A DNA stretch of 64,000 nucleotides, from positions 24,449 through 88,448 of IMG/VR virus record IMGVR_UViG_3300002514_008521; one strand, written 5' to 3'. Shown one piece after another: positions 38,777 through 61,852 of the stretch (positions are counted from its first letter, which is position 1; every line of letters begins with the position of its first letter). The DNA is from a virus (lineage: Duplodnaviria > Caudoviricetes). Made by a program: the position numbers and the translations under genes. The notes under the pieces were generated by a model. It was given only the letters and a program-made list of their open reading frames with translations. It made no database searches and was not told where the DNA came from.

Positions 38777-39140
38777 TGGTGGAGGTGCCGGGAATCGAAC
38801 CCGGGTCCAAAATAAATCTAAAAATTAGGTCATTCACAAGTTTGTCTGATTTATTCCCAAACCAGCAAAGTATCTCGAAATCTCCTCGTCCTTATCGAGA
38901 ATCAGGACCTCACCCACTTACGTAGGGAACCATTGGGGACCTTTTAAACTCCGTGAGGTCAACCACTTATCCGATCTTTACTAACAAGGTTATCGGAAAC
39001 CCCGCAATTACGCAGCTAAGGCGTAATCGTACTCAACATTATCGTTGGCAATTAAAGTTCGCAACACTGTCAATCCATGTGTCACAGTTGGATACTTGCA
39101 CCCTCAAATGTCCTTACCTTGTCGAGACCAGTTCACCCCC
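38777..39140 (-). ncRNA. ssrA: tmRNA, tag peptide (A)ANDNVEYDYALAA*
   Basis: 5' GGGGGTGAACTGGTCTCGAC; 3' GGTTCGATTCCCGGCACCTCCACCA; acceptor stem with G3.U pair; tag frame 39049-39008. Confidence 0.97.
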
Positions 39141-54506: not shown

Positions 54507-54593
54507 TGGTGCCTCGGGAGGGACTCGAACCCTCAATCCCGTACGGGCGACAGATTTTAAGTCTGTTGCGTATACCAATTCCGCCACCGAGGC
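54507..54593 (-). tRNA. trnL: tRNA-Leu(TAA), CCA encoded
   Basis: GCCTCGGTGGCGGAATTGGTATACGCAACAGAC-TTAAAA-TCTGT, long variable arm, GGTTCGAGTCC, ends GAGGCACCA. Confidence 0.97.
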
Positions 54594-58466: not shown

Positions 58467-58676
58467 TTAGGCGTGATATGCCTTAAGTGCATCTTCTGCA
58501 TCTTCTTTAGTATCATATGTCTGAGGCCAAAGTTTTCCGGTCTTGTTAGAGATAATTCTCCACTTTCCATCCCTGTCAGTGACGCATCCGGATTCCGGAC
58601 ACTTTCCCTTACCAGACTTATCTTCAGCTAATACATAACGAATGATACTTCTTAGTCTGCTTTCTGATATTTTCAT
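58467..58676 (-). CDS. Small protein with ISESRLRSII leader motif
   Basis: N-terminal motif; CPESGC; coupled to upstream gene. Confidence 0.7.
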   Translation of the reverse strand: MKISESRLRSIIRYVLAEDKSGKGKCPESGCVTDRDGKWRIISNKTGKLWPQTYDTKEDAEDALKAYHA

Positions 58677-59290
58677 TATCGCTTTCTTCGTAGAGTCTCA
58701 CGAATTTTGCGGGCTAGTTTTCTTTTAAGAGCGCGCCGTTGCTTAGATTCATGACGTACCTCAAAGCCGGCATCATCACGACGGTCTTTATAATCCTGGT
58801 CGTGTGCTGCCTCAGCACCATGCTCAGCTGCCAGGCGCTCATCTTCACGTGCATCATAGCCCTGGTCATCGTGGTGGTGGTGATGGTGATGCACATGGTG
58901 GGTAGCATCATCTCTATCTTCAAACCCAGCATCATCTCTGCGATCATGATAATCTTGTTCATGATCTGCTGCTGCACCATGAAGCGCAGCCAAGTGCTCA
59001 TCTTCACGAGCATCGTATCCCTGGTGTTCCTCTTTCATTACACGACGAACGATATTACGTAACTGTCGTTTCATCCGTCGACGCGACTCATCTTTTCTTT
59101 CTTTCTCTTTTTCCGCATGGAGCTCCTCTTCATGATCATCTTTAATGTCATCCTTAAGGTCTCTAATATGCTCGATATCATCTCCTATATTCTTTTTGAG
59201 ATGATCAAGTTCAGTATCAACCGTATCTTCGAATAACCGCTTTGTTTCTTGCAAAATTATTCTTCTTAATTGTCGCTTTGTAATTCTCAT
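58676..59290 (-). CDS. His/Asp-rich repeat protein with ITKRQLRRII leader (putative internal head protein)
   Basis: GGAGAG RBS; 53-aa-period internal duplication QGYDAREDE...RRDDAGFE; poly-His tract. Confidence 0.75.
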   Translation of the reverse strand: MRITKRQLRRIILQETKRLFEDTVDTELDHLKKNIGDDIEHIRDLKDDIKDDHEEELHAEKEKERKDESRRRMKRQLRNIVRRVMKEEHQGYDAREDEHLAALHGAAADHEQDYHDRRDDAGFEDRDDATHHVHHHHHHHDDQGYDAREDERLAAEHGAEAAHDQDYKDRRDDAGFEVRHESKQRRALKRKLARKIRETLRRKR

Positions 59291-59375
59291 GTTACACTCT
59301 CCAGGGATGTTGTGTTGTAGTTTTAAATATACACGTGGGGGACATTTATGACATAGGCTGGTGAATTTATGTAAA

Positions 59376-59585
59376 TTATATAGCTATGACATCCCATCCC
59401 GCACTACTATAGTTTCTTATCACACCCTCTGTAAAGATAGAGTAGGTCGTATATGCGGAATTGTTGATTATGAATTCTTTTTTATCTATAAGAATTCCGA
59501 CGCCTTTCACATACCGGTAGAATGGGTCACCGTTTGTTGGCGACATGATGGGATTTTCAAATTCTACTAAGTCACCGGTATGCAT
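59376..59585 (-). CDS. Small KOW/SH3-like hypothetical protein
   Basis: MHTGDLVEF...GVGILI; start reset to ATG 59585. Confidence 0.55.
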   Translation of the reverse strand: MHTGDLVEFENPIMSPTNGDPFYRYVKGVGILIDKKEFIINNSAYTTYSIFTEGVIRNYSSAGWDVIAI

Positions 59586-59594
59586 AATTTTCTC

Positions 59595-59625
59595 AAAAAA
59601 AAAGCGCCCCGCATTCCCGGGCGCC
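59595..59625 (-). terminator. Rho-independent terminator closing the large ncRNA
   Basis: GCGCCC...GGGCGC stem followed by T9 on the minus strand. Confidence 0.85.
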
Positions 59626-60275
59626 TTAATTCTCATGACCATCAAGCCTTTTGAGCCTGTCCCCTTCTCGGGTTAGATGTGAACACACCGGCAAGTAACA
59701 CCGTTCACGAGATTTCTCCCTGTTCTTGGCTCGTGAAAACCACGGAACAGCACGTTCTACTGTCACTAACATTCTGCGCTCAGTTGGGTAAGCTGTACAC
59801 TTCCCCCCGCATAAGCACGCCATGCTTCCAATCCTTGGGAGAATGTACACATAGCCCCTTTCGGGACGACGACCCTGTTGCCAGTTTCATCAGAGAGACT
59901 TCTGCCAATGACAGTTAAGTTCTAAGGGTGCTTAAGCCCTCTTCCCAAGACTTTCATCACCTTTCGGCGTCTTGGTTTGCCCTTATCCCGTTTCCACGAT
60001 GAACCTACAAGTCCGTGGATATTTTCAGTAGTATTTCCCTAGCGGAATAGGGACTCATACTTCCAATCACTGAACAACTTCGGAAATTCCACTCTCCTTA
60101 ACTTGTTCCCTCTCTTAGTTGGGCGGCATAACGTAAGAACGCTACTTTCCCAATCAAGGTTTTCTCTATCATTAGCTTTCGCCAATGTACAGGGGCCAGT
60201 AATTCCACCTGAATTTTATAACCCGAGAACATGGGTGTATCTTTCAATTCTTTCAAAGAGCCAGCCTTAAAGGCT
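59626..60275 (-). ncRNA. Large structured ncRNA of unknown class (core 59665-60229)
   Basis: No credible ORF; 11-bp closing helix 60219-60229/59665-59675; nested long-range helices; three GAAA-capped hairpins on the minus strand; terminator at the 3' end. Confidence 0.8.
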
Positions 60276-60315
60276 ATGTGTAAGTTATATTCAACGTTAT
60301 TCTAATGTTTAATTT

Positions 60316-60546
60316 TTAAACTTTGTCGGCTTCTTTTTTTGTTGACATATTAATTAATTTTCCGGCTTTTTCTATCAATTGGCCCCGGATTTTAAAAAGT
60401 TCACAGTCATATAAGACTAACGCTGATTTCATAAGCTTATCATATGATATTAATAATCCTATGTGTTTCTTGGGTGTTGTTGACCAATCATCAATGTCCA
60501 CAATGTCTTCCCACTTTGCAAATCTAACAATATCACCTGTTTTCAT
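60316..60546 (-). CDS. Small KOW/SH3-like hypothetical protein
   Basis: MKTGDIVRF...IGLLIS; ATGA coupling. Confidence 0.6.
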   Translation of the reverse strand: MKTGDIVRFAKWEDIVDIDDWSTTPKKHIGLLISYDKLMKSALVLYDCELFKIRGQLIEKAGKLINMSTKKEADKV

Positions 60547-60761
60547 GAAACAAGCTCAGTTGCATATGAAAATACTCTTTCATCAATAACTTTTATACTT
60601 TTACATCCATGATGCAGTATGAGATGATGACGCATGGGTATATCATCACCCATAATTTTGTATTCACACCCTAGGTATAGTGCAATCTGATCATTAAGAG
60701 CACAATTTTCTTCAATAAACCCAAACCTAATCAGATCACCTATGGAAGTATTATTTTTCAC
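60543..60761 (-). CDS. Small KOW/SH3-like hypothetical protein
   Basis: SIGDLIRF. Confidence 0.55.
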   Translation of the reverse strand: MKNNTSIGDLIRFGFIEENCALNDQIALYLGCEYKIMGDDIPMRHHLILHHGCKSIKVIDERVFSYATELVS

Positions 60762-60945
60762 ATGTACTTACAACTTCCCACTGATCTACGAGGCCGGACT
60801 TAATACGACCGTCCGCATGTAATAACTTAATAGCATTTCGTGCCCTATCAATAACCAGGGCATGTGTAGAAATATAGTCGGCCTTCCTATTATAAACCTT
60901 CCACCACATTTCATATTTCATTTTTACTAAATCGCCGATATTCAT
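60751..60945 (-). CDS. Small KOW/SH3-like hypothetical protein
   Basis: MNIGDLVKMK. Confidence 0.6.
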   Translation of the reverse strand: MNIGDLVKMKYEMWWKVYNRKADYISTHALVIDRARNAIKLLHADGRIKSGLVDQWEVVSTCEK

Positions 60946-61031
60946 TTTTTCTTTTTTTCAAAATATGTGGGAAGCAATACTATGATCCCAACCATGGTAC
61001 ATGCGGTGATAAATAACACTGTATCACTCAT
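60942..61031 (-). CDS. 29-aa single-TM peptide MSDTVLFITACTMVGIIVLLPTYFEKKKK (not in ORF track)
   Basis: ATGA overlaps at both ends; hydrophobic core with basic tail. Confidence 0.55.
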   Translation of the reverse strand: MSDTVLFITACTMVGIIVLLPTYFEKKKK

Positions 61032-61234
61032 GTTAACACCTTAATGTTTTCTTCCATTAGTAGACTAATTTCATCTTGCCATGTTGTTTCTATATCCCCA
61101 TTTTCCCATAAAATATCTACCTGGGGGGGTGAAACACCAGATCCCTTTTCATCGATATCTACCATGTCCACAATTATACCAACATACATTTTATCATTAT
61201 CGCTTGAAAAACTAACCACGTCGCCGATCTTCAC
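61028..61234 (-). CDS. Small KOW/SH3-like hypothetical protein
   Basis: GTG start MKIGDVVSF...VGIIVD...VDILWENG. Confidence 0.6.
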   Translation of the reverse strand: MKIGDVVSFSSDNDKMYVGIIVDMVDIDEKGSGVSPPQVDILWENGDIETTWQDEISLLMEENIKVLT

Positions 61235-61424
61235 TTGATATTCTCTTTTTATAAATTGTAACATTGTTTGTTAGCGCTGGATATTCATCATCATAAAAAA
61301 TAATGTTCCCTTTCATGTTACGTGTTGCAATTAACCAGGCCTGGGGAACCGTCTTTATATTTTCATAATCTTCGAACAAAAATGATTGCTCAAAATCGGG
61401 ATAGCATGGTGTTTTATCTTTCAT
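61212..61424 (-). CDS. Hypothetical protein
   Basis: GAAGGAG RBS; ATGA coupling. Confidence 0.5.
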   Translation of the reverse strand: MKDKTPCYPDFEQSFLFEDYENIKTVPQAWLIATRNMKGNIIFYDDEYPALTNNVTIYKKRISSEDRRRG

Positions 61425-61852
61425 TGGTTGTCTCCTTCGTCTGTATCTTCAATCTTTATCTTCTTTCCACACATAATTGCCTCAAAAATTTCTACTAATT
61501 CAAGCATCTTAGTACATGTATGCACACCTAGGCGCCCCAGTTCACTTAGCGCTCTTAATTGCATGTTTTCCATATCAATCTCTACCGGGCCTTCACCATA
61601 GTCTAATACTACATGAACAATCTGTGGCCCGGTCAATATACGCTTGGCTTCCTTGGGCGGAACACCGGCTGAAGACGTACTAATTTTTTCATGGTGTAAT
61701 AAGTCAACTGCCCACTTTGCCTCTTTAAGACTACCTCCGGTATGATCACGTAACGCTTTAATGGCTTTAATCTTATTATTATTCATAAGGCAATCGAGTA
61801 TTTTAGAATATGTCTTCAAGTCGACGTGTAAAAAATCTCTGCTATAATCCAT
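61421..61852 (-). CDS. Hypothetical protein with ribosomal L7/L12 C-terminal-like motif
   Basis: KIKAIKALRDHTGGSLKEAKWAVD resembles the L12 CTD motif KI.VIK.VR..TGLGLKEAK..V. Confidence 0.6.
   Translation of the reverse strand: MDYSRDFLHVDLKTYSKILDCLMNNNKIKAIKALRDHTGGSLKEAKWAVDLLHHEKISTSSAGVPPKEAKRILTGPQIVHVVLDYGEGPVEIDMENMQLRALSELGRLGVHTCTKMLELVEIFEAIMCGKKIKIEDTDEGDNQ

Follow-up and report, generated by a model that had tools for sequence, protein, structure and literature searches.

The DNA analysed herein, hereafter called the window, comprises the last 64 kb (64,000 nucleotides) of an 88,448-bp viral contig of IMG/VR (record IMGVR_UViG_3300002514_008521), which, given its CheckV completeness of 24% at this length, is regarded as a fragment of a very large phage. 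Besides genes for PhoH and tail-fibre-like proteins and many small open reading frames (ORFs), nearly all on the minus strand, the window encodes a phage transfer-messenger RNA (tmRNA; 38777-39140, minus strand; full-length match, 89.4 bits) and a long-arm tRNA assigned as tRNA-Leu by ARAGORN (54510-54593, minus strand). Approximately 20 kb upstream of the former and 5 kb upstream of the latter, on the same strand, positions 60261 to 59595 hold a stand-alone gene for a structured non-coding RNA of approximately 665 nt, which is the subject of this study.

A preliminary description of the window had placed here, in a GC-richer gap between ORFs, a large and ornate RNA read from the minus strand and ending in a strong terminator, and these points were borne out. 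The G+C content of the RNA stretch was 0.45-0.53 as compared with 0.32-0.40 in the flanks, and the minus-strand minimum free energy of -246 kcal/mol corresponded to a z-score of -5.4, which was equalled by none of 20 shuffles. The stretch contained short, non-conserved ORFs only; no ORF was conserved across the members of the family, the longest one varying in strand, frame and place, and the alternative that a conserved ORF might explain the region was thus not upheld. In alignments of 12 to 24 homologues the conserved region ran from the motif G(U/C)UCUUU to the U-tract, and nhmmer matches covered profile positions 2-651 in approximately 100 loci. The minus-strand orientation was concordantly indicated by covarying helices containing G.U pairs, the terminator, a boxA-like leader and the tRNA genes on the same strand. 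The features of the locus are summarized in Table 1.

Table 1. Positions of the RNA gene, its helices and loop contacts, and the adjoining signals in the window, listed in the direction of transcription.
Feature	Position	Strand	Remarks
Conserved RNA gene, approximately 665 nt	59595..60261	-	From boxA-like leader to end of terminator U-tract; seen by conservation, nhmmer and metatranscriptome contigs
Candidate promoter TTAAAC-N17-TATAAC	60284..60312	-	Weak; read from the sequence; resembles TTGAAC-N17-TATAAT of many relatives
Local hairpin AGCCUUUAAGGCU	60263..60275	-	Upstream of boxA; in the window, absent from upstream sequences of homologues
boxA-like leader GCUCUUUGAAAG	60250..60261	-	Family pattern G[U/A/C]UCUUUNA[A/C]A
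P2, 5' hairpin	60237-60233 with 60224-60220	-	In domain 60162..60237
PKA, UUCUC with GAGAA	60229-60225 with 60166-60162	-	P2 loop with single strand; helix 2
P3, P4	Between the PKA arms	-	Helices 3-6; GAAA loop at about 60177
P5/P6 domain	60109..60159	-	Helices 7-10; 95.8-99.2% of cells paired
PKB, UCUUA with UAAGA	60138-60134 with 60117-60113	-	P6 hairpin loop with single strand; three two-sided pairs
P7/P8 and P9/P10 hairpins	60021..60108	-	Helices 11-16; P10 two-sided in 6/6 pairs
PKC, GUGGAA with UUCCGC	60092-60087 with 60047-60042	-	Loop-loop contact
P11	60019-60013 with 59999-59993	-	Within 59916..60019
PKD, UAGGUUC with GAACUUA	60007-60001 with 59922-59916	-	P11 hairpin loop with single strand
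Insertion hairpin GCCGAAAGGU	59968-59959	-	Clade-specific; absent from most relatives
P14 hairpin	59941-59924	-	In P11-PKD span, which helices 17, 18 and 22 cover
Invariant segment AAAGUCUUGGGAAG with two long-range contacts (PKH, PKE)	59835..59952	-	Helices 20, 21
PKH, AGU with ACU	59952-59950 with 59696-59694	-	Single strand with P25 loop; two-sided in 3/3 pairs
PKE, UUGGG with CCCAA	59948-59944 with 59839-59835	-	Single strand with P20 loop; two-sided in 4/5 pairs
Central domain	59759..59915	-	Closed by P15 ACUGUCA/UGACAGU (59915-59909 with 59765-59759); helices 23-33
Contents of central domain		-	Invariant CUCUCUG, P17, invariant CCC-GAAA-GGG hairpin (59865-59856), P19 to P22
Palindrome UGUACA, tip of P22 hairpin	59794..59799	-	Candidate symmetric (intermolecular) kissing loop
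P23 hairpin	59720..59750	-	Invariant arms CUGUUC/GAACAG, covarying tip; followed by invariant GGGAG
3' domain	59632..59711	-	Closed by P24 CUCGUGA/UCAUGAG; P25, P27 (CAUC/GAUG), P28, P29
PKG, GUGUUC with GAAUGC	59686-59681 with 59616-59611	-	Single strand with terminator loop; helix 37
Intrinsic terminator	Stem 59624-59619 with 59609-59604; U9 59603-59595	-	G+C-rich hairpin; from the fold of the 3' tail

Relatives of the RNA proved to be abundant. A helicase-based contig search yielded a single truncated homologue (G005, 73% identity), the conserved words of which served as patterns for contig scans; two such patterns gave 11 homologous loci in IMG/VR and a third gave four more. The pattern for the metagenome search was supplied by the P23 segment (the CUGUUC/GAACAG arms and GGGAG), and a gapped pattern recovered at least 119 stretches from marine-dominated metagenome contigs, nearly all of which were confirmed by profile search. 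More than 120 homologues with 54-87% identity were thereby found in viral and marine metagenome contigs. The full-length copies counted numbered 70 (the window and loci L020-L124), of which 56, sharing 54-86% identity with the window, were retained after dereplication at 90%. Several candidates were discarded, namely a BLAST hit (G006) that falls in coding sequence, three chance matches of a 17-mer (L020, L021 and L023), chance 18-mer matches in coding regions or a tRNA (L034, L035, L037, L040, L041, L042 and L044), and 18 of the 21 pattern matches in genome contigs, the other three being true. When the RNA of the window and those of the divergent members L081 and L043 were compared by blastn with 50,697 GenBank records of cultured phages, no match was found.

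The carriers are large T4-type marine phages with one copy of the RNA per genome. The two complete ones, recognized by their terminal repeats and 293 kb and 204 kb in length, each encoded a T4-type Gp23 capsid protein and a single RNA copy approximately 100 kb from the Gp23 gene. Three further copies occurred in contigs of metagenome-assembled genomes labelled Halobacteriovorax sp., Methylococcaceae TMED69 and Flavobacteriales (L168, L176 and L178). Since one contig of this kind, PBIO01000025.1, is equal in length (101,404 bp) to the RNA-carrying viral contig UViG_2788500220_000014 of IMG/VR, these copies were read as binned phage contigs and give no evidence on the host. As a separate observation, a chance 28-nt BLAST hit pointed to a locus (L016, G006:C1:22763-25793) with a reading frame that translates to IPGNTAVFIDNSGSM, which by eye resembles a von Willebrand A or Ro60-type motif and is shortly followed by a tRNA-like T-arm sequence; the locus might be a Ro/Y-RNA-like module in the genome of a distant relative.

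A secondary structure model was built by RNAalifold (12, then 56 members) together with a search for covarying column pairs, and was checked against 24 members newly aligned by MAFFT, of which 21 were mutually less than 80% identical and three were added as divergent representatives. The final model comprised 185 pairs in 40 helices, seven of which cross the nested fold as pseudoknots or loop contacts. Standard pairs filled 96.8% of the cells, as compared with 80.0% in shuffles (0 of 500 reached the observed value) and 40-46% when the partners were slid by one to three columns, and two-sided changes were found in 130 of the 185 pairs (781 cells). The check by covariation in homologues that the preliminary description had put forward thus came out in favour of a large structured RNA.

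The modelled fold is supported helix by helix. In the 5' part, all five pairs of PKA changed on both sides with 97.5% of the cells paired, and the fifth pair of PKC was U-A in 14 members, A-U in eight and C-G in one. Helices 17 and 18, in the P11/PKD span, were paired in 100% of the cells with five and four covarying pairs, respectively, while the long-range contact PKE was rewritten in divergent members from UUGGG/CCCAA to CAUGGU/ACCAUG, CUGGC/GCCAG or UUCGGU/ACCGAA. Within the central domain, two-sided changes were seen in all seven pairs of P19 and all eight pairs of P17. P23 (helix 34) combined six invariant pairs with four covarying ones, and in the 3' domain, in which P29 is the near-invariant ACAGGCUCAAAAGGCUUG, helices 35, 36 and 38-40 were paired in 94-100% of the cells with two to four covarying pairs each.

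The individual helices that had been drawn in the preliminary description from the window by itself fared less uniformly. Among the long-range ones, only ACUGUCA/UGACAGU, now P15, was kept in the family, with two-sided changes in four of its seven pairs. The 11-bp helix proposed to close the structure (60229-60219 with 59675-59665) is formed in the window and was not kept in the relatives, and the helices UGUACAUUCUCCC/GGGGGAAGUGUACA, UUCACGAG/CUCGUGAA and UUGGGAAAG/CUUACCCAA were window-specific; in the 24 diverse homologues these four were paired in 63.7% of the cells as compared with 62.8% in shuffles, and displayed no excess covariation. The possible outer helix AGCCUUU/AAAGGCU had to be abandoned as well, its 5' arm being located upstream of where conservation begins, in a window-specific hairpin. 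Of the three GAAA-capped hairpins pointed out, those at about 60177 and 59859 correspond to conserved helices, and the one at about 59962 lies in an insertion found in a part of the family.

Two further pairings were considered. The helix P1 suggested by RNAalifold (UCUUU 60259-60255 with GGAGA 59719-59715) was left out of the model, because a two-sided change was found in one pair only and because the 5' segment is better explained as boxA. A 7-bp pairing is possible between CUCUCUG (59897-59891) and CAGGGAG (59722-59716), which covariation neither supported nor rejected because the sequence never varies.

At the 3' end, a U-tract of at least four residues followed the terminal hairpin in 92 of 114 members. 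PKG, with three two-sided pairs and 95.7% of the cells paired, uses the loop of the terminator hairpin, and this hairpin is therefore a structural part of the RNA, anchoring its 3' end in the fold.

To place the RNA among known families, all 4227 covariance models of Rfam 15 were scanned with permissive filters for weak hits, a check also proposed in the preliminary description, and no hit was obtained for the RNA. At the gathering score, the whole window gave only the tmRNA and the tRNA, both outside the RNA stretch; at E<=10, the 1.3-kb region gave terminator-like noise only; and at E<=1, 13 diverse members gave only their adjacent tRNAs. In these scans of the window (E<=10) and the 13 members (E<=1), the models of GOLLD, ROOL, OLE, raiA and HEARO found no match, and those of RNase P, group I/II introns, tmRNA, signal recognition particle (SRP) RNA and 6S RNA found none within the RNA, in agreement with the lack of RNase P, tmRNA, SRP and group II hallmarks noticed at the outset. 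No rRNA model of Rfam 15 matched the RNA behind the leader, either. Furthermore, the neighbouring genes, small unrelated ORFs or tRNAs, varied from locus to locus and did not form the exons of the split gene that an intron would require.

The lack of any match in Rfam 15 leads to the view that the RNA represents an uncatalogued large-RNA family, which, as judged by covariance models alone, is separate from every catalogued family. Full-text literature searches found no paper describing it, and a large survey of structured RNAs in IMG/VR, in which the motifs average 67 nt, described no such RNA (PMC10690425). The family is thus new in the sense that it is absent from Rfam and was not found described in our literature searches. 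Of the earlier suggestion that the RNA is either a member of GOLLD, ROOL or OLE or a new class, the part concerning a large-RNA family outside the catalogues stood, whereas no model match linked it to the three named families.

The RNA starts with a sequence that closely resembles boxA, the antitermination signal found in the rRNA operons of bacteria. The leader columns were 84-91% conserved among the 56 members (88-94% of the ungapped rows) and participate in no covarying helix. As compared with the Escherichia coli rrn boxA, which reads ugcucuuuaacaa and is followed by its spacer as ugcucuuuaacaauuua (PMC2724277), the window matched at 9 of 12 positions, and most of the 42 members listed matched at 8-11 (range 6-11). 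The leader is thus close to GCUCUUUAACAA; in relatives with a clear sigma-70 promoter it begins approximately 9-17 nt beyond the -10 hexamer and hence soon after the expected transcription start, as a boxA leader should. In the unique upstream regions of relatives, a sigma-70-type promoter scoring at least 10/12 was found in 25 of 76 cases as compared with 2.6% of shuffles, examples being TTGACA-N17-TATATT and TTGAAC-N17-TATAAT, and the distance from the end of the -10 hexamer to boxA was 17 nt in 11 of these 25 promoters (range 9-29). Consensus scans of the minus strand of the window returned nothing convincing, and the candidate listed in Table 1 was not called by them.

The likeness to an rRNA operon leader accordingly comprises the first 12 conserved nucleotides, the sigma-70 promoter close upstream in many relatives and the adjoining tRNAs; it differs in that no rRNA model recognizes the sequence following the leader and that binding of NusB/NusE is putative.

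The RNA is present in marine RNA libraries. Either the sequence of the window itself or one closely related to it occurred in marine metagenomes and metatranscriptomes, and when four RNA runs from four studies were compared with positions 59300-60600, three marine metatranscriptomes (X18, X20 and X23) gave 62-113 contigs each, all within bins 59608-60267, including one contig of 146 nt identical to the window. The lack of contigs from the flanks was not used as evidence, because these parts vary among the relatives and absence is beyond what contigs can demonstrate.

With respect to genomic neighbourhood, no flanking protein was conserved across the loci of the family, and the recurrent neighbours were tRNA genes. 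Flanks of 1 kb or more on either side were available for 48 loci; in 23 of these, a tRNA was located no farther than 1 kb away, almost invariably on the strand of the RNA, and in five loci (L114, L033, L098, L056 and L069) tRNAs lay 3-10 nt from the ends of the RNA. In one of these (L114:130-796, plus strand), the RNA is inserted between a tRNA-Met 7 nt upstream and a tRNA-Gly 5 nt downstream, an arrangement suggesting that its ends would be set by tRNA processing and not by its own promoter and terminator; in another (L033), a tRNA-Lys precedes the RNA at a distance of 8 nt and a tmRNA is located 2.3 kb upstream. In the relatives, the RNA is either preceded by a promoter of the sigma-70 type or immediately flanked by tRNA genes of the same strand. 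The tRNA/tmRNA setting points to a putative translation-related module of the phage.

The preliminary description had also suggested flanking KOW/SH3-like proteins as partners of the RNA. These are four small ORFs of 64-78 aa (60316-61264, minus strand) with common N-terminal starts of the type G-D-(I/L)-V/I-x-F; they matched no Pfam or PHROG family and were not conserved beside the RNA elsewhere, and the partner idea is therefore without support. Two other neighbouring ORFs deserve mention. A 143-aa ORF 1.2 kb upstream of the RNA (61421-61852, minus strand) gave a sub-threshold match to the C-terminal domain of ribosomal protein L7/L12 (E = 3e-5, 24.7 bits as compared with a cut-off of 25.9); it had two weak relatives only in IMG/VR, and its use as a route to further homologues of the RNA led to these two weak loci, both without the RNA. 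A 204-aa ORF on the other side (58676-59290, minus strand) is highly acidic, with repeats, a run of eight histidines (HHVHHHHHHH) and an N-terminal leader of the ITKRQLRRII type, and matched no family.

As to the mode of action of the RNA, the tip of the P22 hairpin attracted our attention. Its loop held a palindrome of at least 4 nt in 55 of the 56 dereplicated members, and the palindrome switched between clades among UGUACA, CGUACG, GUAC, UAGCUA, AUAGCUAU, UUGCAA and UUGAUCAA, which represent four palindromic tetranucleotide cores (GUAC, AGCU, GAUC and UGCA) plus one imperfect variant. Adjacent loop nucleotides cannot pair within one chain, and such switching is therefore read as a sign of pairing between molecules, following an argument made for other large RNAs (PMC12286853). 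In that work by Kretsch et al., a palindrome-switching loop of OLE and a covarying loop of GOLLD were found by cryo-electron microscopy (cryo-EM) to be symmetric bridges between molecules (PMC12286853).

Mainly because the palindrome of P22 is kept while its sequence switches, as in OLE and GOLLD, we favour, with modest confidence, the reading that this boxA-led RNA of tRNA islands, a member of an uncatalogued family, self-associates in the manner of ROOL, GOLLD and OLE. In the mechanism that we propose, host RNA polymerase would transcribe the RNA like an rRNA or tRNA operon, and the boxA, by way of NusB/NusE, would shield the long transcript, which is not translated, from Rho. At loci with adjoining tRNAs, tRNA processing would free the RNA. 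The folded RNA would then pair with its own copies via the palindromic tip of P22, perhaps with additional intermolecular pairing at other loop contacts, and the outcome would be a dimer or a larger RNA-only assembly of the ROOL/GOLLD/OLE type. A more specific version, in which a boxA transcription unit in the tRNA/tmRNA island of marine T4-type jumbo phages makes an RNA-only multimer through symmetric kissing loops, evolutionarily separate from ROOL and GOLLD, is put forward tentatively, as a possibility that we do not rate as probable.

Several points weigh against self-assembly of a boxA-led transcript. Three members carry the imperfect palindrome UUGCUA, and some other constraint could account for the conservation of the predominant UGUACA. 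Because palindromes of at least 6 nt were also present in 18% of shuffled loops, we infer self-association through P22 and do not claim it as an observation. At the other loop contacts, covariation cannot separate intramolecular from intermolecular pairing. As for transcription, the boxA-likeness is a resemblance to the E. coli rrn sequence only, and the promoter of the window itself is weak or unclear. The RNA-library evidence consists of assembled contigs, for which DNA carry-over is possible and which do not show strand, ends or abundance. The oligomer and the ends of the transcript are predictions.

In comparison with the known large RNAs, the present one likewise exceeds 500 nt with many covariation-backed helices and pseudoknots, and is encoded by phages, in many cases in tRNA islands, with no protein partner dedicated to it. 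ROOL (Rumen-Originating, Ornate, Large) is a phage- or prophage-encoded RNA of approximately 600-660 nt, often near tRNA islands, with many pseudoknots and no known protein partner, which forms an RNA-only nanocage held by kissing loops as determined by cryo-EM (PMC12286853). The present RNA resembles it in size, in the phage and tRNA-island setting, in its multiple pseudoknots and in the lack of a conserved protein neighbour. In contrast, it did not match the Rfam model of ROOL, its carriers are marine T4-type jumbo phages and not phages of the rumen and of Lactobacillales, it begins with a boxA-like leader and involves its terminator loop in the fold, and its oligomerization is predicted here, whereas the ROOL nanocage was seen by cryo-EM.

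GOLLD, likewise a large RNA that phages or prophages encode in the vicinity of tRNA islands, forms a nanocage in which the symmetric kissing loop L21a covaries, its central GC being replaced by CG, and still self-pairs (PMC12286853); the P22 loop displays the same kind of self-complementary switching. GOLLD is, however, often longer than 800 nt and has another secondary structure, and its Rfam model gave no match. In OLE, a large ornate RNA, loop L9.3, in which the palindrome may be GGCC, GAUC or AGCU, bridges a dimer symmetrically (PMC12286853), again in likeness to the palindrome-switching loop found herein. OLE differs in being encoded on the chromosomes of extremophilic Firmicutes and in having dedicated protein partners, an OLE ribonucleoprotein complex being named in titles cited by PMC12286853, and the present RNA did not match the Rfam model of OLE and had no conserved partner protein at its loci.

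An alternative that we take seriously, while holding it doubtful, is a monomeric functional RNA, either a ribozyme or the core of a ribonucleoprotein acting on tRNAs, tmRNA or ribosomes, in which the palindromic loop would contact a symmetric protein or play some other role. A precise active or binding core is suggested by the many invariant unpaired or never-varying segments (CUCUCUG, CAGGGAG, GCUGUUCCG, AAGAACAGGGAG and CCCGAAAGGG), and the embedding of the gene in tRNA operons would suit such a function. In our own reading, GAAAGUC followed by a pseudoknot helix also loosely recalls the P4 region of RNase P. RNase P RNA, suggested by this motif and the tRNA context, was nevertheless rejected, because no bacterial or archaeal RNase P model, with the P4 pseudoknot and conserved regions CR-I to CR-V, matches and because the pairing partners differ, being strands in hairpin loops (helices 20 and 21); the likeness is superficial. 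More generally, a monomer is at odds with the absence of a match to any RNase P, intron or other ribozyme model even at E<=10 and of a conserved protein neighbour, and a protein site would keep its sequence, so that the switching palindromes are hard to explain in this manner.

It also appears unlikely that the RNA is an abundant decoy or sponge titrating a host factor, be it Nus factors via the boxA, a ribosomal protein, as OLE is proposed to do by sequestering RpsU (PMC12286853), or an RNA-binding defence protein. The boxA-like leader is indeed kept in the mature conserved region, and the summed contig depth was high in the metatranscriptome assemblies; however, contig depth does not measure expression, no repeated binding motifs were found, and a fold of 40 helices with seven pseudoknots goes far beyond the needs of a sponge.

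Common ancestry with GOLLD or ROOL, from which the RNA would have strongly diverged, is very improbable in our estimation. It would account for the same size class (659 nt in ROOL env-120; PMC12286853), the common occurrence in phages and tRNA islands, the presence of multiple pseudoknots and the symmetric-loop behaviour, but is opposed by the lack of any hit with permissive filters, in the window at E<=10 and in 13 diverse members at E<=1.

The view that the stretch is not an independent RNA, but belongs to a neighbouring gene as its long structured leader, 3' untranslated region or attenuator, or is a spacer that folds by chance, to which the unclear promoter of the window and an ORF beginning (ATG at 59582) 13 nt beyond the U-tract might lend themselves, is close to refuted by the massive covariation, by the neighbouring genes that change between loci while the RNA stays, and by its boundaries, which are set by a promoter or a tRNA on the 5' side and by a terminator or a tRNA on the 3' side.

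GOLLD and ROOL of phages and OLE of bacteria have only recently been shown to build RNA-only assemblies (PMC12286853). The family described herein is similar to GOLLD and ROOL in size and tRNA-island setting, and has its own fold, marine T4-type carriers, a boxA leader and a palindrome-switching loop; as an independent and abundant family, it would offer a third system for asking what RNAs of the GOLLD/ROOL type do. More than 100 marine phage contigs thus carry an unannotated 0.65-kb gene that has been missed by current RNA catalogues. If the RNA is truly a separate self-assembling RNA, RNA nanocages or scaffolds would have arisen repeatedly in phages and would be connected with the way in which phages take over host translation; they might, for instance, hold or process tRNAs or parts of the ribosome.

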